A stretch of DNA of 64,000 nt from Stegostoma tigrinum (taxonomy: Eukaryota). Below the pieces are notes generated by a model. That model was not told the origin of the DNA. It made no database searches and saw only the letters and a program-made list of their open reading frames with translations. Below, in pieces: positions 1,381 to 56,727 of this stretch. A program made the translations under genes and the position numbers. How positions within the stretch are numbered: the first letter of the stretch is position 1; each line of letters starts with the position of its first letter. Where the stretch lies: the NCBI RefSeq assembly GCF_030684315.1, contig NC_081399.1, positions 9,162,113 to 9,226,112 on the forward strand, written 5' to 3'.

Positions 1381-1439
1381 CTGTGTGAACAAGGAAAGGC
1401 TGTTAGTAACCTCCAGAAACATTCCTCTGTCTCTCTCTA

Positions 1440-2404: not shown

Positions 2405-2740
2405 CATAAACCTGGAGAGAAATCTCTTCTGTATAATCTTGTCTTGCTGTTACAGTAACTGTGTAAGTCCCTCCGTCACTGACCCGCAGGTTGTCTATCT
2501 GGAGGGTGTGGTTGTGGTGCAGTGTCGTTCTTCCTTCAAACTCAGTTTGTGGAAATATCTTTGATTTATTCTCACTGACATCAAATCGAGCGATGGGTAC
2601 CTGGAGAGATTCTACACTGAATTTCCAGGTGATTTCTGCACGCTGTGGGATCGGGTCGATTTCCACAAGTAACCAGACTGAGTGTCCCACGGTCCCGTTC
2701 ACAAGGAAATGTGGAATTTTAATATTCACTTCCCACTGAC
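2405..2740 (-). CDS. CD2/SLAM-family gene A, IgV exon
   Basis: Acceptor ccatttgaag|GT and donor TATG|GTGAGT, phase 1/1. Protein VNGTVGHSVWL..EITW..LQIDNLRVSDGGTYTVTV..LQVY is a V-set domain with no cysteines, as in CD2/SLAM. Confidence 0.92.
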
Positions 2741-3560: not shown

Positions 3561-3589
3561 AGGGTTACACAATTGGGAGAGATAGAATC

Positions 3590-12814: not shown

Positions 12815-12881
12815 CGACACAGAAGGCAGAGATAATGAGCAGCTCACAAGCCCATCTCATATTAAAATTACACATCGCCAT
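12815..12881 (-). CDS. Gene A leader (signal peptide) exon
   Basis: ATG at 12881, MAMCNFNMRWACELLIISAFCV+G|GTGAGT. Phase 1 fits the IgV exon at 2740, and the exon is paralogous to 45930-45996. Confidence 0.85.
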
Positions 12882-13060
12882 TGAGAGGGACAGAGAGGGA
12901 AGAGGAAACGTTTGAGATTGTGAAACAAGGAAGCGATTGGAGCGGAAAGACGAAATACAAGCAGCCTCTGAAAGAAAGTGCACCACACGGAGGCAAATAC
13001 ACTATAGCCCCCATACCGCAGCCTCTCGGTGCACTCTCTGTAGCCCTACATCTGAGTCAC
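12882..13060 (-). promoter_or_regulatory. Probable gene A proximal promoter/5'UTR
   Basis: Alignable with the region upstream of gene B. Contains GGAA (ETS) motifs, CCAAT, RUNX ACCACA (12982-12987) and AP-1 TGAGTCA (13053-13059). Motif function is inferred. Confidence 0.5.
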
Positions 13061-14069
13061 CCCCTCAGACTACCATCATCATTCGCTGTGGCTCCTGTCT
13101 CCATCCCAAAGCTGGGAGGAGGTCCTGTCCACTGCTGCAGTCGGGAGGTCAGGGGGGGCCTGCCCATAAGCAGCATGGATGAAAAGAAGGAGAAAGCGGG
13201 CAGAGAGAGTAAAAGGGGAGGGGAAGACAGGTTTGGGAGAGGAATTTTCGAACAGCCTTCAGTTTCAAGAAAAGAGACCATCAATTTTTCTGACAGGGCG
13301 GGCGAGGAGGCGTGAGCTGGTGTGAGTCAGGACTAATGTTTCAAAGTACTCCTAATGATGGAGGTCAGAGCCTTTGGGTGGCAGTCATTGAGGGACACTG
13401 CATGAGCTTCCTTTGGTATCAGGATGATGGTGGTCAGCTTGAAGCAGTTGGGGGACTTTGAATAGTAGCAAGGAGACGTTGAAGATGTCAGTCAAAATTC
13501 CCACTGTCTGGTACGCAGAATCCGAGTGCAGAGCCGGGGATAAAATCCGGGCCAGTCACTTCCTATGGGTTCACTCTTGGAAAGGCCGATCTGGCGTCTG
13601 CAGCAGGGGCCGAGGGTGAATACCTAGGCTCATGGTAAGGCCAGGAGATATCAAACTGCGTCACTCAATCATACATGTTTCACAGAATTAAATTATCTTG
13701 GGTGCAAGATAATTAGGGTGTATTTCTATCTGGAACATCCGAAAGCATGCCAAGTTGCCATGGAAGTGGAACGTGAGATGCGAAGTTTCTCTTGTTTAAT
13801 ATTGCTCGCTGTTTTTCACAGAAGACAGTTGAAAATTTGGAAATTGTGCAGTTCTCTTGGGCTAAATAGGAGAGTAGCTGCAAAATCCATCCAGCTTTGA
13901 ATAGATTGAGAGCCTAAGACAACGTGGGATACCTGGATATAAAATGTGGGGATTGAAATATTTATGCTGTAACCTTAAATATTTGAAGGGGTTCTACAGT
14001 TCAGCAGATGGAGCTTTGACCCCAGGTATTAGAATGTATCTGCATGTTAGCAAGAAATAAATGACCAGT

Positions 14070-16789: not shown

Positions 16790-17140
16790 ACCTTATCTTC
16801 CGCCTGGGCTTCCTATAGCCTGGAGGACTCAACGTTGAGGTCCCCAAATTTCAAATAACCTATCCAGTCATCCTCCAGATCCCATTCCAGAGCCATCTCC
16901 TCCCTTCCATTCCGCCTTCTGACCCTCCCTTCCAGCCACCAACCAGATTCATCCCTCTCATCGACCAACCAGATTACCATTTCACTACCCCCCCTCCCAC
17001 CCCTTTACCTACAGCTCCCCCTACCCCCACATCTAGTCTGAAGAAGTGTAGCACCCTAAACGTTGACTTCTCCTTTCTGCCAAATGCCGCCTGGCTTGCT
17101 GTGTTCTTCCAGCATCCTTACAGAATAGCAGACCTACTCT

Positions 17141-17770: not shown

Positions 17771-19626
17771 CACACTCCACGTAGCCCTCTTTCATCTCAG
17801 GTTCATCCTCCATTCAGACCTCTCCATTTCAGACCCTCACTGCTGGTTCCTCCCATCTCAGCTGCTACGAATTTTTCTGTGGCTATGAATGTGCTGGTTC
17901 CACCATCTCTCCCTGTCTGGATGATATCTTTCAGTGCAGTGTTTGCCAGGGTCAGAGAGGTGGAAGATACCTGACGAAGATGCATGCGAACAATCCATCC
18001 CATGACATCATAAGGATTGTTTCTGGAGCATAGACGCCAACATAGCTGGGTTGACCTCCTATTGCAAGACACGCGAATCCTCAGCAAAAAGCAAAAAAGA
18101 ATCATTGTCTATGAGTGAACAAATAACATCAATTCATGCAGGACTCCTTTAATCCTGTAGCACCCAATGAAACACATTCACAACCTATGAACTGATGACA
18201 GCTCCACTTCTGAATTGTGAACCTCCAGTGCTCAGGGAACATTGTCAACCACACCAATATGGTATCTGAGCCAAGCAGCAATGCCTCAGGTCTCTACCTG
18301 CCATGGAAAATCTGTGATCCTCAACCACTTGAGGATAGCCTTGTTGAAGATGTGACCACTTAATTTCTCCACAAGTGGAATGTGAGGAACAGCTCAAATT
18401 ATCTCTCAGGACAAGAATTCAGTGTGTAGGGCATCAACCTGACTGTGGCGATCACAGTCAGGTTGTTGCCCTACACACTGAACTCTTGACCCGAGAGATC
18501 CCTTCCTGGTCATTGCAAGCACTCACACTGAGTCAGCTGAAGCTGTTGGTTGAATCAAACTACTTCCCCAATCATACCAACTAAAACTTTACGGAAGGAG
18601 TATTCATTCCCCCCCACCCCACCATTGCCAATGCAGAGTAACAGAAAGGTCCAGGCCCCATCATCCTGTTGCTGAATAACACTGATCTTGACATCATCTG
18701 TTTGTACGTCTAACTTTGGTGGCTCCTACTCCCATCCTGGTTTCCAGTAATGTCCTGCACCGTCTTGCTTCACCTGGCCTTCAGTCAGACTGCCTACCAA
18801 TGCTGACCTGAGGGGAAGAAGTGAGAATGCTCTCAAAATCGTAGTGAAGCCTTCCCTAGCCCAACATTCCAACCAATCTCACTCAAGTCCTCTTCTTCAC
18901 AACTGAAAGTCTCTCCATGAGCTTCTTACTGAAAGGAAATGGACTGGGAAAATTGTTAGTCTGTATTTTGCTGGTATTTGTTTACTCAGTCTAGAATTTT
19001 ATTCAGAGGAAGTGTTTGTGATTCTCTCTCTCTCTCTCATTTCAGTTTTGCTTCCCACTTGGGCTGATGTGTGGTTGTGATTTACTGGATTGGTCCCAGA
19101 AATGTGGGATTTTCTTTCATGCAAAGGGACCGCAGCCATTGGGATTGTTTTCCTTAGAACGGGGAAAGCTAAGGATGATTGCATTGAGGCACCTAACATA
19201 AGGAAGGGTCTTTCTTGATTATGTTAATAGGGCAACACCATTTCCAATGACAGGAGGGTTAGGAACCAGAGGAACACATTGGAGAGAATCAGTAAATGAT
19301 CCCGAAGGGATGAGAGGAAATGTTTCGATCCAGTGAGTGGTTGTGATCGAGAATGTGGTACCTAAAAGGATGGTGGAAACAGATTCAGTGGGAACTTTCA
19401 AAAAGAGGGGATGCGTGGAAACATTCGAATGGGAGAAATTTGCAAATCAATGGGATAAGAGCAGAGAAATGTTGGGTTAATTAGAATACTCTACAACAGC
19501 CAGCATAGGCATGATGGGCTCAATGGCCTCTACCTGTTCTGGATAGTTCTATAAATTTAAATAATACCTTCCACATCTGAGCTTGTTTCTTTCATGCCCA
19601 CTGACTGAGTTCACTTGTTCCTTCAG

Positions 19627-19872
19627 CTCAGAGTCAGGCCGCCTGTCCACTGGATCCCTGGGTCGATCAGACTCCTAAGCTCTGGAGCTCCCAGACATGT
19701 CAACGGATTATGAGGTTGTCTAGATAAGATCATCACATGACATCAAAATGGCAAGTGGGAATGTGAAATATTTTGGCACTAAAGGAGTTAAAGAAAAGGA
19801 TACATTTTCATCCGGAGACCTCAATCTCTAAATCAATGACTTTCAGAGAGAGGACGGTGGGGTTTATGAGAT
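19627..19872 (+). pseudogene. SLAM-family IgV pseudo-exon (B-like), 3'-truncated
   Basis: Acceptor ttgttccttcag|CTCAGAGTCAG. Blocks TGGATCCCTGGG, AATATTTTGGCA, ATTTTCATCC and GAGAGAGGA match exon 48639-48959. Contains TAA and TAG stops (TAG at the conserved Trp) and indels. Confidence 0.85.
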
Positions 19873-21559
19873 GATTTAACAAAAGATTTAGGAATTTAAA
19901 ATTAAGAATCAGTTCAACTGGCCGTGTGCAGTGAGTGAGCTTTTATCCGACAAGCCATGAACTGCAAGATAGAAATAGAAGGAGACCATTCTGCCCCGTC
20001 ATATGTGTTCCACCCTTCAATAGGATCACGGCAGACATCCCCATATTTCTTGATTCCATTTGTGCCCAAAAATACTATTGCTGTCAATTTGAATGTACTC
20101 ATCAACTGAGAATTCACAGCTCTTTTGAGTAGAGATTTACTCCTAGTGAATGAAGAACTTTCTCCTTATCACAGTCTGAAATGGTCAATCTCATATCCTT
20201 AGTCTGTGATTCCCACGCTCCCCACTCTCCAACCACAGGAAGCAGCCTCTTAGCATTGATTTTGTTGGACACTAAGAATTTTAAGCTAATCATTATACTA
20301 ATCACTCACTAATTCCATATCGATGAATGGTTGAGTGGAATGACTTCTTTCTGTGCAGCAGCCATATGATTCTGTAAGTTGTCACTCCAAGTCTAGTATA
20401 GAGTTGGAGGATCTGGTCATGTTAATCAAAATAGATGAAACAACCTTGACATCTTGTGATATCAAGTAGTTGAAGTGTGAAGTCATGGTTTCTTCTTCAC
20501 AATTCTTGACTCTCCGCACAGGGACCTTTAAATTAAAACGATCACATTTCCTCATTTATCTGTTCCCTTCCTAATGAGGAAGTTGCTGCTGATGATTTCA
20601 CCCACAGCAACTTTTATTTTGCTAAGATTTGGAATCTGTCACTATCAACCTAAATAAACTGTGAATAGGCAGTTAACTTGTAGCACTACGAATAATAAAT
20701 CGGACATGGAATACCAAATATAACAAAGATAGCCTTAACTGTCAGAGCTTCAGGGGAGACCGCTTGCCCATATGGCCCAAATTCAGCCGCACAGTACTGC
20801 TGAGCTTGGATCTTCCTCGGGCTAAATTCTAGCCCTTTTGCCTCAAGGATGTAGCAGATTCTGTATAGAAACTAGCTTCCATAGAAGTAGGGTTTCACCC
20901 ATGCAACCTTCCAAAACCTACTCGTTAAAGTTCTGTCTGTTGAGGTGGTGTGGATGTGCGGAAATGCTTTTACATGGCATGCCATGGCTGATTCTGGACA
21001 TCCAGTTGCTCAGAAACAAAAAAAACGTCAACAGTTGGGAGCATTCAATGCCTGTGAATCCAGATGTCTAATTCAGCTTACTCATTGCCTCTCCACTCTA
21101 TCTCTTCTGTTTCTTCTGATCTGATTGTGACACTGCTTCTGCATTTAACTGTCCTTTATGTTGCAGTGAATTTGCTTCATATTTGGTATTTCTTTGAGGA
21201 CTAGGTTTTGAAGGATTTTGCAGATGGCTGGATTTTTTTACTTCACAGCAGGTTTAAAAGATATTGGAATTTATGTCCAAGGCTTTTGGGAAATCATGTG
21301 ATTTGTGCTAATTGCTGCTCTAGGTTGCTTGAACTCACTTAAGGAAACACACCTGACAGTTTAATTGCTATCCTGTTTGAACAGTGTTTGCAGAGTTGGG
21401 TTTGCTAATTTTGGAATTTGTTGGGAAAGTCTTCTGAGAACAACGTTCCCATACAGTGTCTTCTGCTCCAAAGCACCTTTGCAGTGAGTTTGGTGAGAAA
21501 CCAGTTTGTGTTTCTGGTAGAGAGTCACTGAATGTCAGAAACCATTGTCAAGAAATAAT

Positions 21560-22077: not shown

Positions 22078-22210
22078 TCAGAGATAATGGGAGCTGCAGA
22101 TGCTGGAGAATCCGAGATAACAAAGTGTGAAGCGGGATGAACACAGCAGGCCAAGCGGCATCCCAGGAGCGCAAAAGCTGACGTTTCGGGCCGAGACCCT
22201 TCATCAGCTC
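22078..22210 (-). mobile_element. Short Penelope-tail element with hammerhead motif (22180-22207)
   Basis: Reverse complement CTGATGAAGGGTCTCGGCCCGAAACGTC followed by the same tail as 45762-45890. Confidence 0.85.
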
Positions 22211-22380
22211 TCTCATCAGCTAAACACTAATTTACAGATTTTACAGATGTGCCATTGAAATCATACTGTCCAAGTGCATAGTGGCCTGGTACGGAGGCTT
22301 CTCTGTCCAGGACCATGAGAAACTACAGAAAGTGATGTGCACAGCCCAGACTATCAGAGAAACCAACCTTCCATCCATGG

Positions 22381-28559: not shown

Positions 28560-28940
28560 GAAGAGAAACAGAAGTTGCTGTAAAAGCTCAGCTGGTCTAG
28601 TAGCATCTGTGAAGAAGAATCAGAGTTAATGTTTCTGATCTGGTGACCCTTCCTCAGAACTGATGGTAGCTAGGAAAATGTCAGTTTAGATGCAGAACAT
28701 AGAGTGGTGGGAGGGGGTAAGAAGTAAATAATAGGTGAGAAGAAAGAGAGAGAAGAACAGTTAGACAAACAAAAGAGTTGATAACGATTTGGATAGGAGG
28801 GTGAATAGCTGTTAGTGAAGACACCAGACCTAAAACTTTAACTCTGATTTTTCCTGAAATGCTGCCGGAATTACTGAGCTTTTCCAGCAAATTCTGTTTT
28901 TGTTCCTGATTTACAGAATCTGCAGTTTTTTTTGGTTTTT
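28560..28940. mobile_element. Inverted pair of old Penelope-tail-like short elements
   Basis: Arms ~28563-28660 and ~28825-28935 are roughly complementary, with a degenerate CTGAGGAAGGGTCAC..GAAAC core. Related copies at ~29965-30090 and ~42063-42157. Confidence 0.6.
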
Positions 28941-29869: not shown

Positions 29870-30490
29870 TCAAAAATTGGAGCAGGATTTTATCAGACTG
29901 ATGCCTGGAATGACAAAGCTGCTATGTGAAGAGAGACTGGATTAGTTAGGATTATAATCACTGGAACAAAAACAATGTTGTTGGAAAAGCTCAGCAGGTC
30001 TGTGAAGAAGATATCAGAGTTAATATTTCAAGTCTGGTGACCCTTCCTCAGAACAGCCATTTCTGGGCATCTGCAGTTCTATTGGTTTTTATAATCACTG
30101 GAGTTTGGAAGAGAAGTGGTTGGTGGGGTACGCAGGGTCTCATAAAACTCTATGAGATTCTAACAGTACTGACAGGGTTAAGACAGGAAGGAAATTCCCA
30201 AAGATTAGGGTGACCAGTTTAAGGATATAGGTTATGCCGTTTAGAACTTAGATGAGAAAAATTTCTTTACCCGAGACTGATAAGCCTTTGAAACGATCAG
30301 CCATGAAAAGCGGTTGAGGCCAAAATATTGAATGTTTTCAAAAAGGAATTAGATATAGTTCTTAGGGATAAAGGAATCAAAAGGTGTGGGGAGAAAGTGG
30401 GAACAAGGTACTGAGTCAGTTGATGAGCTATTGCATTGAGTGGCGGAGCAGGCTAGAGGGCTAAACGGCCTACTCCTGCTCCTATTTTTC
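29870..30490 (+). mobile_element. Decayed CR1 3' end
   Basis: Similar to the other CR1 tails; interrupted by a short element. Confidence 0.7.
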
Positions 30491-35130: not shown

Positions 35131-35703
35131 TCTGAACAAGGCCTCACACCCAACATGCATTGTCTGACCTAAAATGTCACCTCTTCTTTACGCTGATAAA
35201 AACCTTTCGTTCTCTCAGGACCATGACTTGAAAGGATCAAAGGTGTGGTCCTCGATACCCGCATCGCCCCCAGTAATGCCTTTCTCTTTGCAGGTTTTGT
35301 GGAACATTCTTCTTCCAATCCTAATTACTTTGCCATCTGTTTCTGGTTCAGAGACAGGAAAACAGGACTACTGGACTTTCAAAATGGCTTTCAGCTCATC
35401 AGTTTTTTGCGTATACATATTAATCAATTAAAATCTTCTAACTGATTAAAGATTTAACAGCTTCTTAGGTTTGTTCGTACATCCTCATCAATGATGTAAA
35501 CCTTTTTTACCTCCAAATTCTGTATCTGATACTGTCTCTTTCACTTACACCTGAAGAAGGACTGAGGCTCTGAAGGCTTGTGTTTTCAAATAAACCTATT
35601 GACTATAATCTGGTGCCATGTGATTTCTGACCTCATCATAGGCTGTATTCAAATATGGACATTCTGGGTGTTCCAGAGATGTGGATCCAGAGGCTTACCT
35701 GTA

Positions 35704-37720
35704 GCCTGAGGTGCTGGGTGAGGAGGCCTGAGGAGGTGCTGGGTGAGGGGACCTGAGGAGGTGCTGGTTGAGGGGGCCTGAGGAGGTGCTGGGTGAGGGG
35801 GCCTGAGGAGGTGCTGGGTGAGGGGGCCTGAGGAAGTGCTGGGTGAGGAGGCCTGAGGAGGTGCTGTGTGAGGGGGCCTGAGGAGGTGCTGGGTGAGGAG
35901 GCCTGAGGAGGTGCTGGGTGAGGGGACCTGAGGAGGTGCTGGGTGAGGGGGCAAGAGGAGGAGCTGGGTGAGGAGGCCTGAGGAGGTGCTGGGTGAGGGG
36001 GCCTGAGGAGGTGCTGTGTGAGGGGGCCTGAGGAGGTGCTGGTTGAGGAGGCCTGAGGAGGTGCTGGGTGAGGGGGCCTGAGGAGGTGCTGGGTGAGGAG
36101 GCCTGAGGAGGTGCTGGGTGAGGAGGCCTGAGGAGGTGCTGGGTGAGGAAGCCCGAGGAGGTGCTGGGTGAGGGGGCAAGAGGAGGTGCTGGGTGAGGAG
36201 GCCTGAGGAGGTGCTGGTTGAGGGGGCCTGAGGAGGTGCTGGGTGAGGAGGCCTGAGGAGGTGCTGGTTGAGGGGGCCTGAGGAGGTGCTGGTTGAGGGG
36301 GCCTGAGGAGGTGCTGGGTGAGGGGGCCTGAGGAGGTGCTGTGTGAGGGGGCCTGAGGAGGTGCTGGTTGAGGGGGCCTGAGGAGGTGCTGGGTGAGGGG
36401 GCCTGAGGAGGTGCTGGTTGAGGGGGCCTGAGGAGGTGCTGGGTGAGGAGGCCTGAGGAGGTGCTGGTTGAGGGGGCCTGAGGAGGTGCTGGGTGAGGGG
36501 GCCTGAGGAGGTGCTGGGTGAGGAGGCCTGAGGAGGTGCTGGTTGAGGGGGCCTGAGGAGGTGCTGGGTGAGGGGGCCTGAGGAGGTGCTGGGTGAGGGG
36601 ACCTGAGGAGGTGCTGGGTGAGGAGGCCTGAGGAGGTGCTGGGTGAGGAGGCCTGAGGAGGTGCTGGGTGAGGGGGCCTGAGGAGGTGCTGGGTGAGGAG
36701 GCCTGAGGAGGTGCTGGGTGAGGGGGCCTGAGGAGGTGCTGGTTGAGGGGGCCTGAGGAGGTGCTGGGTGAGGAGGCCTGAGGAGGTGGTGGGTGAGGAG
36801 GCCTGAGGAGGTGCTGGGTGAGGAGGCCTGAGGAGGTGCTGGGTGAGGGGACCTGAGGAGGTGCTGGGTGAGGGGGCCTGAGGAGGTGCTGGGTGAGGGG
36901 GCCTGAGGAGGTGCTGGGTGAGGGGGCCTGAGGAGGTGCTGGTTGAGGGGGCCTGAGGAGGTGCTGGGTGAGGGGGCCTGAGGAGGTGCTGGGTGAGGAG
37001 GCCTGAGGAGGTGCTGGGTGAGGAGGCCTGAGGAGGTGCTGGGTGAGGGGACCTGAGGAGGTGCTGGGTGAGGGGGCCTGAGGAGGTGCTGGGTGAGGGG
37101 GCCTGAGGAGGTGCTGGTTGAGGGGGCCTGAGGAGGTGCTGGGTGAGGGGACCTGAGGAGGTGCTGGGTGAGGAGGCCTGAGGAGGTGCTGGGTGAGGGG
37201 GCCTGAGGAGGTGCTGGTTGAGGGGGCCTGAGGAGGTGCTGGGTGAGGGGACCTGAGGAGGTGCTGGGTGAGGAAGCCCGAGGAGGTGCTGGGTGAGGGG
37301 ACCTGAGGAGGTGCTGGGTGAGGGGGCCTGAGGAGGTGCTGGGTGAGGGGGCCTGAGGAGGTGCTGGTTGAGGGGGCCTGAGGAGGTGCTGGGTGAGGGG
37401 GCCTGAGGAGGTGCTGGGTGAGGGGGCCTGAGGAGGTGCTGGTTGAGGGGGCCTGAGGAGGTGCTGGGTGAGGGGGCCTGAGGAGGTGCTGGGTGAGGGG
37501 GCCTGAGGAGGTGCTGTGTGAGGGGGCCTGAGGAGGTGCTGGGTGAGGAGGCCTGAGGAGGTGCTGGTTGAGGGGGCCTGAGGAGGTGCTGGGTGAGGGG
37601 GCCTGAGGAGGTGCTGGGTGAGGGGGCCTGAGGAGGTGCTGGGTGAGGGGGCCTGAGGAGGTGCTGGGTGAGGGGGCCTGAGGAGGTGCTGGGTGAGGAA
37701 GCCCGAGGAGGTGCTGGGTG
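35704..37720. repeat. 25-bp G-rich minisatellite GCCTGAGGAGGTGCTGGGTGAGGGG (~80 copies)
   Basis: Constant 25-bp period with point variants. Confidence 0.97.
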
Positions 37721-38246
37721 ACATCGCAAGCTACAAGGTGAAGCAACGCCCCAACGCCCTGTGTTACTGACTGTATTTCTAATGGTGTTTACCCTGCATG
37801 CCTGGACTATAACTCAGCAACTGTTTTCTTGTAGAGTCCAGCTGCGTCCAGATATCACTTAGTAAATACACTCATCCAGTGTCCAACTGTATCTCCACTG
37901 ATACTCATTTGGTGTTTCCTCACGCTATCACATCTAAGAAAACATTTACGTTCACCTGATCAACTTGAAAGATGACAGACACCCTTCAAACAACAATGCG
38001 TCATCTTCACTAACATCAAGCAAAGTGAGAAAAAAAACTTTCCACCTTGTGGTCTGGACTTTTAACTTTTAGAATTTTGTTCGCCCTGCCTCTATATTTT
38101 TATCCACCTATTGCATATGTGTGAAACCATTCAACTTCTGTCTGTCTGAGTTGGGATCTGTGTGCGTGTATTTTGGGTTTTAAAGTTACAGTAATTAAGG
38201 TGCATTCATTAGAAACAGTTTTATTTCTGCTCCTGTTGAAGTTGTG

Positions 38247-39888: not shown

Positions 39889-41420
39889 ACTATGAGAAGG
39901 AGTTGGTCAAAGCAGGAGGGTGCTGTACTTAAATGTGTGAATATAAAAAACAAGGTAAATGAATTTGTAGAGTGTGAGGCAGTATTGTAAGATTGCCACT
40001 GCAGAGGTGGATGCCAGGAATCACTATCAGATGCCAAATGTTCAATCAATTTCTGTCATGCCACTGCAGTTACGAATATAACACAATGGCACTGTCGTCA
40101 TCATACATCTTGCAGGACTCACACTCAAAATATAAAAGGAGCTACAACTCTCAGCAGCTCACTGACATTTCATCGCAACAAGGAGAATGTGCACAGAGAC
40201 AGGGACTCAAGTGCAAATGGTGACTTCTTGAATGTAACTCATTTTTGAGTGCAGCCCTGCTCAAATGCTCTGGTCAGATTTCCTGGCCTCAACCAATGTG
40301 ACTGTTAACATCAAAAGGTTTTCAGCAGAAAGAAGCCACGATGCACATGATTGATGCTTCTCTTAAGCTGAACAGCATTGAGAGGCTTCATCTTAACACT
40401 CTAAGTGTTAATGCTAAATGATGGCTTAGTTATGAAAGAACTAGGTAACGAATGATGTTTGAATTAACTTAAGCTTGGAGAAGTCCAACCCACCAGATGT
40501 TACATATATTATGTTTGTGAATGGATCTGCTTCCCATTTTTGCCTCAATAGATTGAGTTTATGAACATAATCCCAGCTGCAATTGTATACAGCTTTGGTG
40601 AGACCAGACCTGGAGTACTGTGATTATTTTGCCTCATTAAAGAGGAAAGGATGTAACAATATTCTCTCAAGGGCGTAGATTGTCTCATGACATAATTCAA
40701 TTAGAAGAGGTGTACAGTCTCAGGAGTTTCGAAAAATATGAGGTGAACTCATTGTACAGAATGCACAGAACAGAGCAGATGTGCTGAATGTTCTCTCACT
40801 GCTGTAATAACTTTGTGACTCTCCATTTTAATGAAGAAGTTGGGTGTGGAGATATCCTGTCTGACACACAGGAGACAGCAAATGGGCTGAATGATCTGTT
40901 TCTGTGCTGGGAACTCTACGTCAGCCCCCCACAGACTGGGACAGAGAGGGAACAATTTTTCTCACCCATAGGACTGCTACTGCTGAGTGTAATTAGGATC
41001 TTTCCACAATGAGACTTAAAACAGACATATTGTCGTCCATCTGTGACCTACAGAAACAGACCATTCGGGCCAACAAGTTCTTGCTTGTAGTCATGTTGTA
41101 TTCTGGGGAGAGATTGATTGTTGAGGTTCGATGGTTTCATACATGTAAATATCATATGGTTTTGGATGTCTCTGGAGTTTAGAGGAATTTGAGGTGATGT
41201 CACAGAAACATGAAATTCTTATAGGGTTTGATGGAGTTGGTGGGGATGTTGAGTGTCTGTTTTATTCCCAACAAGAGAGCCTGGAACTGGGTAACAGGGA
41301 GGATGAAAAGGCAGTGGTTGCAGTATTAGGTAAGGGGTCATCGCTGATCACTATGATGAGGAAAAATATCTTCATCCATCAACAAGAAAACATTCATCAG
41401 CTAGTGAAGGTTACACTCAT

Positions 41421-41727
41421 GTGATAGAGTCTCACTGACTCTGATGCTTCCTTTCCTGAGTCCAGTTCTACAATTGCCTTGTAATCCCCACATCTCCTTC
41501 CATCTGTCAATGATTTTGAGACTGACGTTTCTGGGATGAAGATTTGTCTGTTTCTTCTCCTCCTCAGTGCCATATTTCACTTGCCCACATGTGTATGGAG
41601 CTATTTTGATGCTGTATGAATATTGTTTCCAGACAGTCTCATCATCCATCAATCTGTTTGGAACGACAAGTGGTAGGGAGACTGGTTGACCCAGGGATGT
41701 ATGCACAGAGGGACAGATGACTGTGAA
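41421..41727 (-). pseudogene. SLAM-family IgV pseudo-exon (B-like)
   Basis: Intron flank TTCCACACTGACT..TGTTCCCTCAG matches the gene B acceptor. SLGQPVSLP..VW..HPRNVSLKI then, after a frameshift, YKAIVELDSGKEASESVRL. Out of phase at the 5' end; the donor reads ATGAGT. Confidence 0.85.
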
Positions 41728-42299
41728 CTGAGGGAACACAAGGATACAGTTAGTCAGTGTGGAACAAGGCAAGCTCAGTCATGGAAGGCAATATTACATA
41801 AATAGAAAACTCCCTGTTGAATACCTCAAGAAAGGTTCACAAAGAATTACTTCTGAACTGAAGCCCCTGATAACAATGAGAGAAATTGTGGCAAGTAACT
41901 AATGCAGTGGTTAAGTAAAGAGGAGAATCATTCTGCATTGTCCCATCAAATAGTCCCAGGACAGGGACAGCACAGAATTCAATACTACATTGTCCGTATC
42001 AAACATTCCCTGGAAAAGTACAGCACAGGGTTAAATACAGAGTAAATCTCCATGTGTACTGTAACAAAAACAGAAATTGTTGGAGAAATTCAGCAGGTCT
42101 GGCAGCATCAGTGAATAGAAAGCAGAGTTAATGTGTCAGGTTCAGTGACCCTTCAAAACAGAATATTCTACTCGTACTCATATTCTAGTACTTCCATCCT
42201 TATTAATATTTTAGTGATTCGTCACTGTTTTATGTATTCTTTCCAATCTTCTGACTTGCTGCCCATCTTTATAGAATTATATGTCTTCTCTTTGAGTTT

Positions 42300-44280: not shown

Positions 44281-45654
44281 CAGAATTTTTAATCAATTAT
44301 TTACTTCGTTATTCAATTATTGATCTTGCATTTATGTCTTATGTTAACTCAACCACTAATGCATATGTCATTTAAAACTAGCGAACAGAATAGGTTTCAA
44401 CCAGTTAAACAGGCGCTCATTGTTGATAAATGTTTGTGTCAATTCTGATGTTTGACCTTCCTGCCTTCAAATGCTGCTTTTCCAGTTTAATATAGAGTAA
44501 AGCTCCCTTGACACTGTCCTCATCGAACACTCCCAAGACAGGGACAGCTTGGGGTTAGATACAGAGTAAAGCTCCCTCTACTATTTGAAACTGAGCTGTC
44601 CCCATCAAACATTCCAAGGGCAGGAACAGCACAGTGTTAGATACAGTGTTTTTTTACTATTGTTGTTTCTGGCCTAGCCAAAGCTTAAAGAATCTAAGGG
44701 CTTCAAAATGTCTTGGAGATGGTTTTTCTTTACTACGTAAAGGTAAAGACACCTTAGCCCTGCTATCTTAATGGAGAGAGAAGACTGGTGGTGGTCTAAC
44801 CAGAGGGTCACCCCACGTCAGGCAAGGGGAGAGGTTGAGAAGGAGACTCCTTCACGATAATCTCAGGCTCCACAGGAATTAACCTCAATTGTTGATGTCG
44901 TTTCTCCCTGATGCTAGCTCACAATGAAAAAACAAAAGTCTGAATAGCTGATTCTACACTGACAACCTGAAAAATGTCGTGGTTAAATCTGACCAAAATG
45001 GAGGTTGCTACGTGAACTTTTAGCAGTAAATGATGGCAGGAAGTAGTTGACATAAAGAAAAAAATGCAGAATGCAAGTGATCTTAAGGAGGAGCGAGGGA
45101 GAAATAGCGAAAGCAATAGATAGAGAGATGAACACAAAGTGGTTATAGGGACAGAGAGAGGATAGCAAAATGGGTCATTGCTCATTATTTCAGGGTGTAG
45201 GCTAGTAAAGCTACAAGTGAGTATGTGAAAACCTGATTGGCATCTCAACCAATTCCGTGCCTTTGGAAATGGAATGGGTTGTTGAAAGTTTTTTTTGTTA
45301 TCAATAAAGGGAGCATGGAAAGTCACATAGAGTAAATGGAAAACTCTTCTTATATGTGAGTTTGACTTCATAAATACAGGCAGAGCTATAAGCAGTGGTA
45401 GGAAACTGAATAAAGGAACAGAATGCGTCATGTGTGGTTGGAGCAAAGTGTGTAAAGTAAAATTAAGAGAGATATGTCTACAATAGGCGTCACTCACAGA
45501 GAAGAGTATGAGGGAGGAGGAGTGGGTCTCTCAAACAGTACAGAGCGAATGAGGGGGTCACTCAAAACAGTAAGCGAAATGAGGTGTCACTCCATTAAAG
45601 GGGTACCGAGAAACCGAGATAGTCTGGCACAGAAGGAATCACATAATTGGCCGG

Positions 45655-45929
45655 ATACGGGGAATGCTCCGAGAGGCTCTACACAGCCTGGGGTACGGGG
45701 ATGGTATACTTGTCTAAGTAGGATACATTTTCTTTCAGATGCATACGTCTTTCCGTCTAACCTCTGATGAAGGGTCTAGGCCCGAAACGTCAGCTTTTGT
45801 GCTCCTGAGATGCTGCTTGGCCTACTGTGTTCATCCAGCTCCACACTTTGTTATCTTGGATTCTCCAGCATCTGCAGTTCCTATTATCTCTCCTCATTTT
45901 GCAGTCTGGTTACTTCCTCCTCTCTCTCG
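45655..45929 (+). promoter_or_regulatory. Probable gene B proximal promoter/5'UTR, interrupted by a short element
   Basis: Blocks CCGAGAGGCT, TTTCTTTCAGA and CGTCTTTCCG are shared with the gene A upstream region. ACTTCCTC (ETS/PU.1-type) at ~45912. Confidence 0.55.
45762..45890 (+). mobile_element. Short Penelope-tail element with intact hammerhead core (45764-45791)
   Basis: CTGATGAAGGGTCTAGGCCCGAAACGTC is identical to the PLE tail at 16701; absent from the paralogous gene A promoter. Confidence 0.88.
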
Positions 45930-45996
45930 ATGGCGATGTGTCATTTGAATCTGAGACGGGCTTGTGAGCTACTTATTATCTCTGCCTTCTGTGTTG
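45930..45996 (+). CDS. Gene B leader (signal peptide) exon
   Basis: MAMCHLNLRRACELLIISAFCV+G|GTGGGT, phase 1. Confidence 0.85.
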
Positions 45997-46352
45997 GTGG
46001 GTAACAATTTTTATATCCATTTTAATTTAAAGATCAGCTCGCACATGTCCTGAACCTTTCCACTGCACATACATGTAAAGACTATTCCGCCCACTGTGCT
46101 TATCGAACTGGAGGATTTAACCTGGCAAATTGTCTAAAATCCATTCCGTCTCAGCTTCTCCTTTATTCCCTGTCTCTCTGGCTCCACCCATGGAACACTA
46201 TAAGTTCCATCTTCAGCTCCATCACATTCAAATTCCTCATCCTTGATCACATCCTCCCTACGTAGGCTCAGCAAATAGGCTCTGTGTCATCTCAGGCCTG
46301 TGGTTTCTTGCTCTGCTTTGACCTGTTCATGCTGGACTAACTCTTCCATCAC

Positions 46353-46658
46353 TGGGGCAGCACAGTGGCTCAGTCGTTAGCACTGCAGCCTCAAAGTGCC
46401 AGGGACCCAGGTTTGATTCCAGCCTCGGGTAACTGTCTGTGTGGAGTTTGCACATTTCCCTGTGTCTGCGTGGGTTTCCTCCGGGTTTCTCCCACAGTCC
46501 AAAGACGTGCAGGTTAGGTGGATCAGCCATGCTAAATTGTCCATAGTGTTCAGGAGTGTGTGGGTTATAAGGGGATGGGTCTGGGTGGGATGCTGCAAGG
46601 GGCAGTGTGTGGACTTGTTGGGCCAAAGGGCCTGTTTCCACACTGTAGGGAATCTAAA
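46353..46658 (+). mobile_element. tRNA-derived SINE (HE1/V-SINE-like)
   Basis: A box GTGGCTCAGTCG, B box GGTTTGATTCC, central GTGGAGTTTGCAC..TGGGTTTCCTCCGGG, CR1-like tail. Confidence 0.85.
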
Positions 46659-46659: not shown

Positions 46660-47645
46660 AGACCACATTAGTGAATGTGCAGGTGAACAGCTGTCTGATG
46701 TGGAAAGCTTTTTTTGGGGCCTGGGATGGAGGTGAGGTGGAAGGTGTAGGGGCAGGTGTAGCACTTCCTGTGGTTGCAGGGAAATGTGCCGGGGATGATG
46801 GAGCTAGTGGGGAGTGTGGAGTGGACAAGGGAGTCATAGAGAGTGGTCTCTCCGGAAGGCAGATAACGGTGGGGAGAGAAATATATCCTTCATAGTGGAG
46901 TCAGATTGCAGGTGGCAGAAGTGACAGATAATGATGTATTGAATCCGGAGGTTAATGGGGTGATATGTGAGGACACGGAGGATTCTGTCTTTACAGAGAG
47001 AGAGAGTTCTGTCTTTGTTTTCATTGCGAGGAGGGGGATGCGCTGTTCCCAATGTGGCCTCCTCTACATCTGTGAGACCAAACAGAGGCTTGGAGACTGC
47101 TTTGCAGAGACCTGTGTTGGGTTCACAATAAATGACAACACCTCTAGTTGCCAACCACTTCAACTCACCCTCCCACTCCCTGGACAACATGTCCATCCTG
47201 GGCCTCCTCCAGTATCACAACGATGCCACCCGGAAACTGAAAGAGCAGCACCTCATATCCTGCCTCGAGAGCCTACAATCCAATGGTCTCAATGTGGACT
47301 TTACTACCTTCAAAATCTCCCCAGTCCTGGCCTCATCCCATGACCAACCCTCCCCCTTATCCCTGCCTCCTTGATGTATCCATCGTCTCTCCCACCTATC
47401 CACTCTTCCAACCTCACTGACCAATCCCCACCACTGCCTATCTGCACTCACCTATCACCATCCACCTACCTTCCCCAGCCCAACCACCCCTCTGAGCCCC
47501 CTTCCCCTCCCCCATTTCTGAAGAAGGGTCCGGACCCGAAATGTCAGCTTTCCTGCTCCTCTGATGCTGCCTGGCCCGCTGTGCTCCTCCATCTCCAGAC
47601 TGTGTTATCTCAGAATCCAGCATTGGCAGCTCTTACCATCTCTCA
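46660..47645. mobile_element. Older Penelope fragment with 5' inversion (linker on -, GIY-YIG + tail on +); hammerhead-like motif at 47518-47545
   Basis: 46660-47020 matches the PLE linker in antisense; 47037-47645 matches the endonuclease and tail in sense. Confidence 0.8.
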
Positions 47646-47814: not shown

Positions 47815-48535
47815 TCTTCACTTTGCATCTAACCCCGTGCTGTCCCTGTCCTGGGAGTGTCTGATGGGGGGGACAGTGTAGAGGGAGCTTTACTCCGTAT
47901 CTAACACCGTGCTGCCCCTGTCCCTGGGAGTGTCTGATGGGGGGACAGTGTAGAGGGAGCTTTACTCTGTACCTAACCCCGTGCTGCCCCTGTCCCTGGG
48001 AGTGTCTGATGGGGGGACAGTGTAGAGAGAGCTTTACTCTGTATCTAACCCCATGCTGTCCCTGTCCCTGGGAGTGTCTGATGGGGGGACAGTGTAGAGA
48101 GAGCTTTACTCTGTATCTAACCCCATGCTGTCCCTGTCCCTGGGAGTGTCTGATGGGGGGACAGTGTAGAGTGAGCTTTACTTTGTATCTAACCCCATGC
48201 TGTCCCTGTTCTAGGAGTGTCTGATGGGGGGACAGTGTAGAGGGAACTTTACTCCGTACCTAACCCCATGCTGCCCCTGTTCTGGAAGTGTTTGATGGGG
48301 ACAGTGTAGAGGGAGCTTTACTCTGTACCTAACCCCTGTGCTGCCCCTGTTCTGGAAGTGTTTGTTGGGGACAGTGTAGAGGGAGCTTTACTCCGTACCT
48401 AACCCCCGTACTGCCCCTGTTCTAGGAGTGTTTGATGGCGACAGTGTAGAGGGAGCTTTACTCCGTACCTAACCCTGTGCTGCCCCTGTTCTGGAAGTGT
48501 TTGATGGGAACAGTGTAGAGGGAGCTTGACTCTGC
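47815..48535. repeat. ~70-bp dispersed satellite (TATCTAACCCCGTGCTGTCCCTGTCCTGGGAGTGTTTGATGGGGACAGTGTAGAGGGAGCTTTACTC)
   Basis: About 10 tandem units. Also seen at ~41940-42060, 44495-44650, 55150-55540, 55870-56025 and, degenerate, 56730-57150. Confidence 0.92.
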
Positions 48536-48638: not shown

Positions 48639-48959
48639 GTCAGAGTCAGTCCTTATATCTGCCTGTGAATGGATCCCTGGGCCAGTCGGTCTCCCTACCT
48701 GTAGAGGTGCCAAACAATACGACGGTTTCTGAGGTTAGCTGGACACAATCTTCAACCAAAACCAAAATTGTTGGATTGGCAAGAGGCAGCATTGAATATT
48801 TTGGCAGTGAAGAGTACAAGAAACGGATATATTTTCATCCTGGGAACTTCAATCTCCAAATCAGTGACTTACGGAGAGAGGATACTGGGCAATATGAGGT
48901 AACTGTAACTGTAACTTCAGGAAAACAAACATTTGAGACAGTTCAACTGGATGTTTACG
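48639..48959 (+). CDS. CD2/SLAM-family gene B, IgV exon
   Basis: Acceptor ttgttccctcag|GT and donor TACG|GTGAGT, phase 1/1. VNGSLGQSVSLP..EVSW..NLQISDLRREDTGQYEVTV..LDVY; no Cys. Confidence 0.93.
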
Positions 48960-49481
48960 GTGAGTAAAACTATCGAACCTGCCTTGCTTTCACCTCTTAT
49001 GGACCCTGTTTCATGATGGGGGGAGGTGATTTCCTAGTGGTATTATCACAAGAGCGATAATTCAGACCCGGGTTCGAATTCCACAAACTTCTGGAATTAA
49101 GTCTAATGATGATCGGGAAACCATAGCGAATTGTCTGAAAAACCCATATTCGCTAATGTCTTTCTGTGATAACAAGGTGTGGAGCTGGACGAACACAGCA
49201 GTCCAGGGCAATGTGCCACTTTTAATTACCTGGAATGATCCTGCCATTATCTCTCTGCCTGTATATTCTGTGCCTGTGTGCCTCCCTCCACTTCACCTGA
49301 CAAATGCTTGTGATGTTAAGCAAACCTGTTGGATTATAACGTGATGCGATGGGACTTCAGATTCTGGGTTTTCCATGTTTTACTAGGATCGTCTGGTCTC
49401 AGACGACCAGCTCCTTGCTCCTGGGGCTGGACATAAAGGAGACTGGGGTCCCAACCCCCAGGAACAGAAAAGGTTAAGGGA

Positions 49482-49749
49482 CAGACAGTGGGAACTGCAG
49501 ATGCTGGAGAATCTGAGATAACAAGGTGTGGAGCTGGATTAACACAGTAGGCCAAGCAGCATCAGAGGAGCAGGAAGACTGACGTTTCGGGTCTAGACCC
49601 TTCTTCAGAAATGGGGTCTTTCTGGAGAAGAGTCTAGACCCGAAACGTCAGCTTTCCTGTTCCTCTGATGCTGCTTGACCTGCTGTGTTCCTCCAGCTCC
49701 ACACTGTGTTATCTCGGATTGCCCAGCATCTGCAGCTCCTGCTGTCTCT
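49482..49749. mobile_element. Head-to-head pair of Penelope-tail short elements forming a ~128-bp-arm palindrome
   Basis: Arms ~49482-49610 and ~49620-49749. Hammerhead cores at 49581-49608 (-, intact) and 49622-49649 (+, CTGGAGA mutant). Confidence 0.88.
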
Positions 49750-51772: not shown

Positions 51773-52123
51773 TGGCATGGTGGCTCAGTGGTTAGCGCTG
51801 CTGCCGGACAGTGTCAGGGACCTGGGTTTGATCCCAACCTTGGGTGACTGACAGGGTGGAGTTTGTACATTCTCCCTGTGTGTGCGTGCATTTCCATTGG
51901 GTGTTCCTCCCACAGGCTGGTTTCCTCCAACAGGCCAATGATGAGCAAGTTAGGTGGACTGGCCATGTTAAATTGTTTGTGGTGCTCAGGATGTGTAAGT
52001 TATGTGTGTTAGCTGCAGGGATAGGGTAGGGGGATGGCTCTGGGTGGAAAGCTTTTGGAGGGCCAGTGTGGGCATGTTGGGCACAATGGTCTGTTCCCAT
52101 GCTGTGGGAATTCTGTGTTCTAT
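51773..52123 (+). mobile_element. tRNA-derived SINE (older HE1-like copy)
   Basis: GGTGGCTCAGTGGTTAGC..GGTTTGATCCC; similar to the copy at 46353. Confidence 0.8.
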
Positions 52124-53410: not shown

Positions 53411-54821
53411 GAGCTTCTCTGCTTTTCAATTCTCTCTATTGCTGAAGTGGATTTCAGTGCGGTAAGTTGTGAAGAGACCATATCTTTTTATTTCTCTGTT
53501 TTTAATTCTAGTCTGAAATGTGAAAAAAGGCCTATTTTAAGAACCAAAGATTGTTGAAGGATTGCTGCATTTTCTAAGACAATTTACCTGGCACCCATTG
53601 TTAGTACTGCTTATACTGCTGCTTGTTCAGGCAGTGGGGGGATGTCTAGTTACACACAGGCTGTGTGCAGATGAAGATTTAATCAGCAACAAGTAGATGC
53701 ATGGTCGGTGAAGTGGCATGGTGGCAAGTTATTGATGGTAAAGGCCTCCTGCCTGCTGACAACGATGTGATTGGCTCTCATTTAGCTGAACAGGTTATGG
53801 ATATGAAAGTTTCAGGAGAGGTCTTGTGATCTCTAAGAGAGAAGGAGCTGTCCCTTTTCTCTGTCGTAATAACTACCCCAAGCCTGAAGAAAGCCACGTG
53901 CTGTAACTTGTGAATTTTTTAACCAATATGTCAGAGACTTCATAAGTGTGAACCTGTCACATTGTACCTCCTGCACAGAAGAGAAAGTTACTAGAGGAGG
54001 AGAACCAAGGAGACAACGAAAGAATCAAATCCGACAAAACAAAAACTATTGAACTGCTGTTCCAGTCTTCACCATCACCCATAACCACCACGCTATTTTA
54101 CGCCTGTCTGTGCATGTAAACAGAGGTGGAGTTTGTGAGTGGGAGTTAGAATTTGATGTTGTAGAGTTATATGTATGTAGTTCCTAATTGTATATCTGCA
54201 GTTGGAAACAATTTATGGATAAATATTATAACTGCTGTTAAGTAAAGCAACATGATCTGTGATTTTTATCCATGTGGTCCAAAAAACAGGTAAATTGAGG
54301 ATTTTGTGAACTTTTAAAGAAAAATCTTTAACATCTTATGATGCCCCTGGGAGTAGTGGGGTGTGATTTCCAATGTGATAGCTCAGTGAGGTGTAACTAT
54401 TGACAAAATCACAGCTTTACCAACCTGCATGAGTACAGTTAGAGGTGGTTCATGTGCACCTTGAGATCCCTTTGCTCAGCTATCAGCACCTCACAACTCA
54501 CCAGATTGAAATTAATTTCTTTAAGAAATGCTGATATTGCTGGTGAAGTAAGTTCTGTGTAAGTGATGGTGCCATAATTTATGTTGCTCATAGTCACACA
54601 CTCATTCACCCTTTGCGCATGAATTTACTCATAATGATACCTGTGACTTGTTTGAACTTAATGTATGAGGGAAAGTGTCAATGTGTCTGATGGAGAAATG
54701 AGCAGGAATGAAACTTTCCCTGGTGTCGGTTTGAAGTGGGGGGATTGTGCTAGGAATTGAGTTACAAACAAGGGTTTCCAGCGCTTCCTCATGTGTTTTT
54801 GCTTTTCAAACTGAATTTCAG

Positions 54822-55106
54822 AGGCTGTGACAGGAACAAACGTCAACATTGTAAACATTGCTAAGTGCAATGTGACGCTGAGGTGCTCCGTGAACGCAGG
54901 CAGTAACGTCAGCTTCACCTGGTGGAGGGGACAGGAAGCGTTGGGAAATGAGCTCACCCATCGTGTCTTTGAAAATGGAGAGAGTTCACAGCTTTTGTTC
55001 ACAGCAGAGCCCAATGAGAGAGCTGTGAGATGTGAGGCCAGCAATCCAGCCAGTCACAAAACGGCAGAGATCAAACTGGAAGATGTCTGTAAGGGAAGTG
55101 TATCTG
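54822..55106 (+). CDS. CD2/SLAM-family gene B, IgC2 exon
   Basis: Acceptor aatttcag|AG and donor TCTG|GTGAGT, phase 1/1. CNVTLRCSVNAGSNVSFTW..RCEASNPAS..DVC, four Cys. Confidence 0.92.
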
Positions 55107-55539
55107 GTGAGTGTCACAGAAAGCAATAAGCTACTGCATTCAGGCATAAAGCCTGTCCTGGGAGTGTTTACTGGGGGACAGTGTAGAGGGAGCTTTACTC
55201 TGTATCTAATCTCGTGCTGTCCCTGTCCTGGGAGTGTTTGGTGGGGCCAGTGTAGAGAGAACTTCACTCTGTATCTAACCCATCTGTCCCTGTCCTAGCA
55301 GTGCTTAATTGGGACAGTGTAGAGAAAGCTTTACTCTGTATCTGACCCCCATGCTGTCCCTGTCCTGGGAGTGTTTGATAGGGGACATTGTAGAGGGAGC
55401 TTTACTCTGGATCCTACTCCATCCTGTCCCTGTGCTGGGAGTGTTTGATGGGGGACAGTTTAGAGAGAGCTTTACTCTGTATGTAATCCCATGCTGTCCC
55501 TGTGCTGGAAGTGTTTCGTGGGGCATTGTAGAGGGAGTG

Positions 55540-55854
55540 TTAGATTAGATTCCCTACAGTGTGGAAACAGGCCCTTCGGCCCACAAGTCCACACCGCCCC
55601 TTGCAGCATCCCACCCAGACCCATCCCCCTATAACCCACACACCCCTGAACACTACGGGCAATTTAGCATGGCCGATCCACCAAGCCTGCACATCTTTGG
55701 ACTGTGGGAGGAAACCGGAGCACCCGGAGGAAACCCACTCAGACACGGGGAGAATGTGCAAACTCCAAACACATAGTTACCCGAGGCTGGAATCGAACCC
55801 GAGTCCCTGGTGCTGTGAGGCTGCAGTGTTAACCACTGAGCCACCGTGCTGCCC
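55540..55854 (-). mobile_element. tRNA-derived SINE (HE1-like)
   Basis: Reverse complement of the 46353 family. Confidence 0.85.
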
Positions 55855-56026
55855 TTACTTCCAGGTCAAAAGAGTAGAGAGGGCTTCACTCAGTATCTAA
55901 CCTTGTGCTGTTCCTGCTCTGGAAGCGTTTGATTGGGGCAGTGTAGAGGAAGCTTTATTCTGTATCTCACCCCTTGCTGTCCCTGTCCTGGGAGTATTTG
56001 ATGGGGGATAGTGTAGAGGGTGCTTT

Positions 56027-56727
56027 AGAACATGGAGCATAGAACATTACAGCGCAGTACAGGCCTTTCGGCCCTCGATGTTGCACCGACCTGTGAAACC
56101 AATCTGAAGCCCATTTAACCTACACTATTCCATTATCATCCATATGTTTATCCAATAACTATTTAAATGCCCTTAAAGTTGTCGAATCTACGACCATTGC
56201 AGGCAGGGCATTCCACGCCCTTACTACTCTCTGAGTAAAGAATCTGCCTCTGACATCTGTCCTATATCTTTCATGCCTCAATTTAAAGCTATATCCCCTC
56301 ATGCTAGCCATCACCATCCGAGGAAAAAGGCTCTCACTGTCCACCCTATCTAATCCTCTGATCATCTTGTATGTCTGTATTAAGTCACCTCTTAACCTTC
56401 CTCTCTCTAACGAAAACAGCCTCAAGGCCCTCAGCCTTTCCTAGTAAGACCTTCCCTCCAGACCAGGCAACATCCTAGTAAATCTCCTCTGCACCCTTTC
56501 CAAAGCTTCCACAGTCTTCTTATAATGCAGCGACCAGAACAGAATGCAATACTCTAAGTGTGGCCGCACCAGAGTTTTGTACAGCTGCAACATGACCTCA
56601 TGGCTCCGAAACTCAATCCCTCTCCCAATAAAACCTAACACACTTTATGCCTTCTTAACAACACTCTCAACCTGGTTGGCAACTTTCAGGGATCTATGCA
56701 CATAGACACCGAGATCCCTCTGCTCAT
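56027..56727 (-). mobile_element. CR1 LINE 3' fragment
   Basis: LVRPHLEYC..QRRFTRMLPG; same family as 22381. Confidence 0.9.

Follow-up and report, generated by a model that had tools for sequence, protein, structure and literature searches.

Minimal hammerhead ribozymes (min-HHRs) have been described in the pLTRs of metazoan Penelope-like elements (PLEs), where helix III is absent or reduced to a short palindrome and the ribozyme works only as a dimer (Cervera and De la Pena 2014, PMC4209133). In the published test, the monomer was not cleaved and cleavage of the dimer was low (PMC4209133). The Schistosoma min-HHR has a helix I of 4-5 bp and a helix II of 7-8 bp, and the D. virilis min-HHR has a helix I of 2 bp. 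Three features define Neptune or Nematis PLEs: the RT, the linker CX2-5CxxC and the CCHH-containing GIY-YIG endonuclease (Craig et al. 2021, PMC8557442). Neptune EN+ PLEs have been reported with strong 5' truncation, inverted copies and an optional tail of 30-40 bp, which corresponds to two starts of reverse transcription (PMC8557442; Frangieh et al. 2024, PMC11167929). The Anolis element that was studied biochemically is a Poseidon and not a Neptune element; it was cleaved with the help of the element protein but not without it, and no RNA reads ended at the cut site (PMC11167929). In mammals, the discontinuous Clec2 hammerheads, which lie in the 3' UTR of several genes including immune receptors, were shown to cleave and to lower expression in vivo (PMC6765202). 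The maize DNA transposon BTA, a fresh insertion in the coding sequence of the first exon of ZmSWEET4c, created upstream starts with a measured effect, a precedent for element-made uORFs that reduce protein without a change in mRNA (PMC9881132). Non-LTR retrozymes are short non-coding units related to pLTRs that carry hammerheads, occur in tandem with at least two complete ribozymes, and are found in the one chondrichthyan sampled (bioRxiv 10.64898/2026.07.22.740005).

The locus described here shares features with each of these systems. We analyzed a 64-kb stretch of the Stegostoma tigrinum genome (the window), in which a hammerhead motif lies in sense orientation in front of a predicted immune-receptor gene, gene B. 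Its core matches the description of the min-HHR, and its helix III likewise consists of an ACGU palindrome without a loop. Helix I (2 contiguous bp, a length given for D. virilis) and helix II (4-5 bp) are both shorter than in Schistosoma. As the min-HHR sits in the PLE terminal repeat, so the motif of this family follows PLE remnants at 16701, 39798 and 47518. Unlike the published min-HHRs, the gene B copy lies inside the leader of a host gene, and the accessible text of PMC4209133 names no shark. The source family shares GIY-YIG with CCHH, the linker and the strong 5' truncation with Neptune EN+ PLEs; the inverted pair at 49479-49749 and the two 3' ends of the family are also alike, whereas the gene B insertion replaced about 3 nt of its target and has no target-site duplication. 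Like the Clec2 hammerheads, the gene B motif lies in a predicted UTR of an immune-receptor mRNA and could lower expression, but it is a dimer-dependent transposon stub in a 5' leader of only one paralog, with a putative activity at most. As with BTA, a fresh insertion in the first exon creates upstream starts and lower translation is expected, although here the element is a retroelement stub in the leader and the effect is predicted. In contrast with the retrozymes, the gene B copy is a monomer. A literature search over titles and the beginnings of abstracts, with most subscription papers outside its scope, returned no paper on this locus or on shark SLAM leaders. On balance, we think it probable that the insert is a young truncated PLE end in a predicted leader exon, that its ribozyme is nearly idle, and that any effect on the receptor would come through changed starts and splicing.

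The insert is a 128-nt solo terminal-repeat stub, consisting of the front part of the pLTR and the tail of a Neptune-type PLE, and spans 45763-45890 on the forward strand. Its borders follow from BLAST, from the empty site of a near-identical paralog and from the ends of the family, and one base on each side is compatible with both element and target. The insertion replaced about 3 nt of the target, resulting in a net gain of 125 nt, and no target-site duplication is visible at the gene B stub. A BLAST search of 45740-45930 against the window returned six further core-bearing copies with E values of 5e-50 to 1e-25, which argues that the likeness is beyond chance, and also matched element fragments at 9019-9097, 17084-17113 and 49168-49205. 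The first of these, 9019-9097, is a small fold-back stub in which an antisense piece is joined to a sense tail piece. A loose core pattern gave 13 matches in the window versus 5.46 expected, a number reached in 1 of 100 shuffles, which amounts to a mild enrichment. The preliminary description had inferred an insertion of about 130 bp from a comparison with gene A, whose insert-free exon 1 and leader region (12815-13075, reverse strand) served as the outgroup. The flanks of the insert indeed align to that region, and the insertion stands. It had been placed immediately after the shared CGTCTTTCCG block, where gene A has CCAAT. The block occupies 45746-45755 and the insert begins 7 nt beyond it. 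The CCAAT of gene A aligns with CTAAC at 45757-45761, upstream of the insert, so the CCAAT-equivalent has diverged rather than been displaced, and the suggestion that promoter elements were moved by the insertion was rejected in that form.

The copy is close to its family, differing from the majority at 45824 in contigs of run X2 and at 45882 in the window copies. With about 2 changes in 128 bases, a 15-base core would stay unchanged without selection with P ~0.79. Selection on the ribozyme core was rejected on this ground, as an unchanged core is expected from the youth of the copy.

The minimal type I core extends over 45764-45791 on the forward strand and consists of CUGAUGA, one extra A, helix II (45772-45783), GAAA and the palindromic ACGU (45787-45790). 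The conserved letters CUGANGA...GAAA...UH are complete, and the cut is predicted after 45791, 139 nt upstream of ATG 45930, as had been proposed. Helix II has the G10.1-C11.1 pair and the extra nucleotide after position 9 that are found in the min-HHR. Over the 7 window copies 97% of its cells are paired, and these close copies contain no two-sided change in helix II and hence lend no covariation support. The description of the motif as intact holds for the core letters, not for the helices. The core reads GAAA-CG-UC and helix III has no loop, so that helix III can form only between two molecules, where the ACGU palindrome permits 4 bp. Helix I (45762-45793) has 2 contiguous pairs, 45762-3 with 45792-3, followed by a C-C mismatch and two chance A-U pairs. 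Two contiguous pairs are found at the gene B stub and in 6/7 family copies, and 3-4 in a second family (28657 and 30051). Three helices in one molecule, as in a canonical hammerhead, are thus not present, and a search of the window against Rfam at the gathering threshold gave 0 matches.

The predicted folds are unfavorable to cleavage. In a fold of 45755-45800 a competing stem of 6 pairs closes the core with P 0.92-0.95, and in a longer leader fold other structures win, leaving helix II at P ~0.05. An active-like monomer would cost 7.6-9.5 kcal/mol relative to the minimum, with a pairing probability for helix I of ~0.00. The active self-dimer is predicted at -5.9 kcal/mol versus -22.8 kcal/mol for the separate folds. 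An active dimer with the intron 1 copy at 47518, whose helix III strand reads AUGU and not the palindrome ACGU, is predicted at -1.8 versus -19.3 kcal/mol. Taken together, the active fold is predicted to be 8-17 kcal/mol uphill, and the ribozyme would be nearly idle in the leader. These values come from a folding model that leaves out the tertiary contacts of the core. The native copy at 16701 scores equally poorly (-5.5 versus -22.8 kcal/mol) even though the motif was retained in the family, so the predicted energies by themselves do not argue decisively against assisted cleavage. Lunse et al. 2016 reportedly observed dimer cleavage of such variants, and the rates may exceed those assumed here. 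By analogy with the Anolis element, which needs RNA beyond the start of reverse transcription, the stub may be without a protein-binding site.

The window holds 7 core-bearing copies of the family, and the conserved core letters are kept in 6/7. The copies at 16701, 39798 and 47518 are located at the 3' end of PLE coding remnants. The most informative is a 5'-truncated, decayed copy at 14968-16794 (+), in which RT motifs, the linker Cys motif, GIY-YIG with CCHH and the 3' UTR are followed by the hammerhead at 16701. Its ORF (14968-16473) has RT motifs at residues 14, 74 and 105 and, between RT and endonuclease, the CX2-5CxxC linker at residues 325-333; the endonuclease motif at residues 364-390 is followed by two His. 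The Pfam GIY-YIG model matched this ORF with E 0.001 and 19.7 bits, below the cut-off of 22.6, and no RT match was returned by the Pfam search of the element ORF in the window. Based on the RT, linker and GIY-YIG/CCHH features, the source element is probably a Neptune-type EN+ PLE (Neptune or Nematis). The two further sense cores mentioned in the preliminary description, in intron 1 and, as a mutant, in intron 2 of gene B, were both located. The first (47518-47644, +) is an older-subfamily copy that closes a decayed PLE 3' fragment and carries the AUGU strand. The second, at 49622, has A6 changed to G and belongs to a head-to-head pair (49479-49749) of an antisense copy (49479-49609), which has an unchanged core and had been missed, and the sense copy (49621-49749). 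The arms of the pair are predicted to form a long hairpin of -223 kcal/mol. The pair consists of older-subfamily stubs that are 84.5% self-complementary across 265 bp, and its centre lies a little upstream of both cores; it would make a long dsRNA in gene B pre-mRNA and is a possible substrate for editing.

The same family is present in all 8 sequencing runs, under four organism labels. In run X2, from the same species, 142,198 contigs were placed on the 701-bp stretch 45400-46100, piled on the insert. The summed contig depth, which is no measure of copy number, was 1.7-4.0 x 10^7 over the insert versus 31-70 in flank bins off the junctions. Loose ends with mixed flanks numbered at least 1900 at 45891, at least 1398 at 45856, at least 1062 at 45763 and at least 510 at 45762, and family loose ends in the runs cluster at 45762/3, 45855-8 and 45888-91. 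The latter two clusters are the common 3' ends of the family and delimit an optional tail of about 35 nt (45857-45891, +), like the published PLE tail. Based on these clusters and the two tail-like 3' ends, the gene B insert is, as judged by sequence, a common stub of the source family. It would have originated by target-primed reverse transcription that began at the distal tail start and halted at the front of the ribozyme.

Some contigs of X2 show other arrangements. Joints from 45794-45802 back to 45762 correspond to tandem units of about 35-41 nt that contain the core only, joints from 45891 back to 45762 correspond to head-to-tail full units (21 contigs), and one joint (depth 61) jumps from 45890 to 45792, the first base beyond the predicted cut. 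These are possibly mini-retrozymes or traces of cleavage, and the joint that resumes exactly at 45792 suggests that the family ribozyme may cut in some setting. At the gene B locus itself a retrozyme was rejected, as a single unit is present there and the head-to-tail family joints lie elsewhere in X2.

By its Ig exons gene B is predicted to encode a SLAM/CD2-family receptor. The signal-peptide coding part of exon 1 (45930-45996, +) is identical in 22/22 residues to the public proteins P0027 and P0028. The IgV exon (48639-48959, +) matches the Pfam V-set with E 3.5e-12 and is identical in 106/106 residues to P0027/P0028 and in 100/106 to the paralog; for the second Ig exon (54821-55105, +, approximate borders) the numbers are 95/95 and 91/95. 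Besides the V-set, Ig matches were obtained for gene B; the SLAM and 2B4 Pfam models stayed below their cut-offs. The exons of gene B in the window are identical to a Stegostoma tigrinum record named SLAM family member 5-like; a transmembrane exon was not found within the window. A near-identical second gene, represented by P0011, P0026, P0029 and P0030, lies on the same public contig. Its cytoplasmic tail is shorter and without the tyrosine motif TVYSQV that is kept in gene B (P0027/P0028), so the two genes may differ in signalling.

Three public isoforms of the paralog show or skip the empty site. In P0011 and P0030, the codons of 45739-45762 run into the codons from 45891 onward through a single Ala, which indicates that the paralog has the empty site and that the insert replaced about 3 nt. 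The insertion would thus be younger than the gene duplication. Among the 45 proteins compared, the insert peptide occurs only in P0028 (score 140 versus 30 or less for the others). A search with the 40-residue extension, a short query low in information, gave no match at E 0.001. In X2, flank contigs break off at 45762 and resume at 45891, so an empty version exists in that sample. The flank depth is 31-37 versus about 19-21 for single variant paths, and a collapsed paralog fits at least as well as a heterozygous presence/absence allele; alternatively, the assembly could have put a second haplotype on this contig, which would then appear as the paralog. In run X9 (organism B), flank contigs cover 45400-45563 and 45920-46100, with the junctions masked by repeat contigs. 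Flank cover was none in run X17 and only a trace beside the left junction in run X19.

Taken together, the protein models of the paralog and of gene B place the insertion site in the predicted transcribed 5' leader of at least some isoforms, and not only in the promoter, where the preliminary description had put it. This leader structure derives from RefSeq protein models, computed predictions that adopt the first ATG in frame and may mix reads of two near-identical genes; the comparison was made at the protein level. The empty-site paralog isoforms begin in an upstream exon ending at the equivalent of 45569, at the equivalent of 45739 or at that of 45664, and of the four distinct paralog proteins three have a start located upstream of the insertion site. 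The upstream exon ends at 45549-45569 (+; ATG 45549, 7 codons) and is followed by a GTAAGC donor at 45570; its use in gene B is deduced from the N-terminus of P0011. Six of the seven residues match, and the seventh differs in the way expected from 45565 A>G, a variant present in runs X2 and X5. As the first seven residues of P0011 map to 45549-45569 with the donor next to them, this exon would splice to the acceptor at 45737-8, which has a matching acceptor-like motif in gene A. The resulting leader and first coding exon (45739-45996, +), with a boundary drawn from the paralog protein models, would hold the whole insert. An alternative intron with a donor at 45693 and an acceptor AG at 45903-4 (45693-45904, +) fits the paralog isoform P0029 and, if used in gene B, would remove the whole insert. 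Pyrimidines make up 17/20 positions before the acceptor at 45903-4 versus 11/20 before 45738, and the insert supplies part of the former tract. Four small contig sets of undefined kind (X5, X14, X15 and X18), from runs none of which is registered as RNA, contained no splice joints or start sites. In X5, one contig runs unspliced through 45501-45651 and has the paralog-type base at 45565, and in X14 one contig, which may come from the paralog, just reaches about 45960-46000.

The insert changes the reading frames of this leader. By arithmetic, the additional 125 nt turn the upstream ATGs at 45549 and 45739 from in-frame starts into the starts of an overlapping out-of-frame uORF. From 45739 this uORF has 69 codons (45739-45948, +), overlaps the main ATG and stops at 45946-8, 48 nt before the exon-1 donor; without the insert, as in the paralog, it shares the frame of the main ORF. 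The insert itself contributes a uORF of 13 codons (45767-45808, +) that starts inside the ribozyme core, and an in-frame ATG with a 40-codon N-terminal extension (45810-45929, +), of which 27 codons come from the element and 40/40 residues are identical to P0028. Four of the five listed gene B accessions (P0028 = XP_059498874/75/77/78) start at this ATG 45810, and the fifth, P0027, starts at 45930. In the spliced RNA, ATG 45739 would have A at -3, whereas T at -3 and G at +4 flank ATG 45930. Scanning ribosomes meet upstream ATGs first, and with these contexts would often be diverted.

The reading that we favor, a truncated PLE end acting through starts and splicing, can be put together from these elements. 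Transcripts spliced through the 45739 acceptor would carry the whole core but remain mostly uncut, since helix III needs a second molecule, helix I has 2 bp and rival folds win. In these transcripts the former in-frame starts would open the overlapping uORF, with the 13-codon uORF at 45767 and the in-frame ATG at 45810 added, and the expected outcome is less receptor protein per mRNA, perhaps nonsense-mediated decay, and a longer signal sequence on some chains. Splicing to 45905 would remove the insert and bypass the uORF effects. The start of P0027 at 45930 counts against this leader reading, as it fits insert-free or shorter leaders. The gene B stub is one of very many Penelope end-stubs, and the remodelling of a 5' leader by a transposable element is a known kind of event. 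The value of the locus is practical: only one of two near-identical immune paralogs carries the young insert, a natural comparison with and without the stub that is suited to asking whether PLE minimal hammerheads ever cut host mRNA in vivo and to gauging how far a stub lowers translation. It is also a likely annotation trap, as four RefSeq models have an N-terminal extension of 40 residues that derives from the element and is possibly never translated.

That the insert is a passenger without effect, because the bulk of gene B mRNA begins downstream of it or loses it by splicing through 45903-4, is the strongest competing explanation, albeit an unlikely one. The 45903-4 acceptor fits P0029 and has its 17/20 pyrimidines with the insert in place, and P0027 starts at 45930. 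At 8 copies per 64 kb and random placement, about 2% of 300-nt leaders would receive a sense copy, so that such stubs are expected by chance in many genes. On the other side, 4/5 listed gene B accessions start within the insert at 45810, and 3/4 distinct paralog proteins begin upstream of the insertion site.

A transcriptional effect, either from an internal promoter of the element with a new start near 45762 or from altered spacing or methylation of the host promoter, appears less probable still. Drosophila Penelope has an internal TATA-less promoter (PMC2377424), and the common beginning of family copies at 45762/3 could mark the start of the element RNA. A start near 45762 would also yield models that begin at ATG 45810. 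However, the CCAAT-equivalent is still in place, and some of the loose ends at 45762/3 continue into native element (consensus agreement 0.37-0.56 in most rows and up to 1.0 in one).

The preliminary description had proposed a ribozyme filter, in which the hammerhead cuts leader transcripts after 45791, possibly by dimerising with an intronic copy. Its premise of upstream transcription starts is now better supported by the paralog isoforms and the starts at 45810, with the proviso that these are computed models, but we regard cleavage in the leader, whether aided by an intronic or trans copy or by the element protein, as doubtful. The unchanged sense core within a predicted leader, the 4-bp intermolecular helix III that ACGU permits, the X2 joint at 45792 and the protein-assisted cleavage of the Anolis element (PMC11167929) speak for it. 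Against it stand the 2-bp helix I, the closed-core fold and an active dimer about 17 kcal/mol uphill. The intronic partners also count against it: the strand of the intron 1 copy is non-palindromic, and a dimer with the intron 2 sense copy was rejected for its mutant core, an energy of 0.1 kcal/mol and its being locked in the hairpin. For the antisense intron 2 copy, pairing with the insert is predicted at -227 kcal/mol, a strength similar to that with its own neighbour and far above that of the 47518 partner, which further disfavors the dimer. There is also no sign of selection, with the core kept in 6/7 window copies and the insert absent from the paralog. For the same reasons, absence from the near-identical paralog and a core expected to be unchanged at P ~0.79, a domesticated ribozyme of the Clec2 type is not indicated. 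If cleavage were true, this would be a vertebrate 5'-leader ribozyme caught at birth. Least credible of all is that the very recent stub is a ribozyme switch in the SLAM paralog leader, in which a cut after 45791, licensed by a partner copy or the element protein, would strip the cap and the out-of-frame ATGs 45549, 45739 and 45767, leaving ATG 45810 first, 18 nt from the new end. The gene could then be silenced, or a longer receptor could be made by cap-independent translation, in the manner shown for viral 5' UTR ribozymes (PMC13725137); immune-receptor output would then be tied to retrotransposon activity.

Several other features were observed in the window. A second family of hammerhead-bearing stubs, with a helix I of 3-4 bp and a different helix II, is found at 28566-28657(-), 29960-30051(-) and about 42058-42154. 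At 22080-22219(-) lies a solo copy that has the first core bases of its target repeated at the 5' junction, a short microhomology or duplication, and in which helix I is unable to form in register. Two SLAM-like IgV exons, 19547-19936(+) and 41404-41847(-), contain stops or frameshifts and are likely pseudogene fragments of the same cluster. Exon 1 of gene A (12881, -) has a leader of the gene B type, and the nearest downstream Ig exons, 2406-2729(-) and 1106-1381(-), lie about 10 kb on and are about 35% identical to those of gene B; gene A may be an exon-shuffled gene or an orphan exon 1. In the whale shark, P0017 and P0031 belong to a single annotated gene. One of these isoforms starts with an exon 1 like that of gene A and the other with one like that of gene B, and they differ at other residues too, possibly as two merged paralogs or through alternative first exons. 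A minisatellite of about 70-72 bp forms dispersed arrays in and around gene B (44490-44649, 47816-48534, 55152-55537 and 55871-56027). SINE-like repeats of about 300 bp, which may resemble the shark HE1/V-SINE family, occur at 46355-46657, 51775-52111 and 55545-55854, one of them inserted in the region of the intron 1 PLE remnant. Long simple G/T-rich tracts with extreme GC skew extend over 3500-7000 and 35650-37790, the former with N runs at 4760-4930 and 6666-6841.
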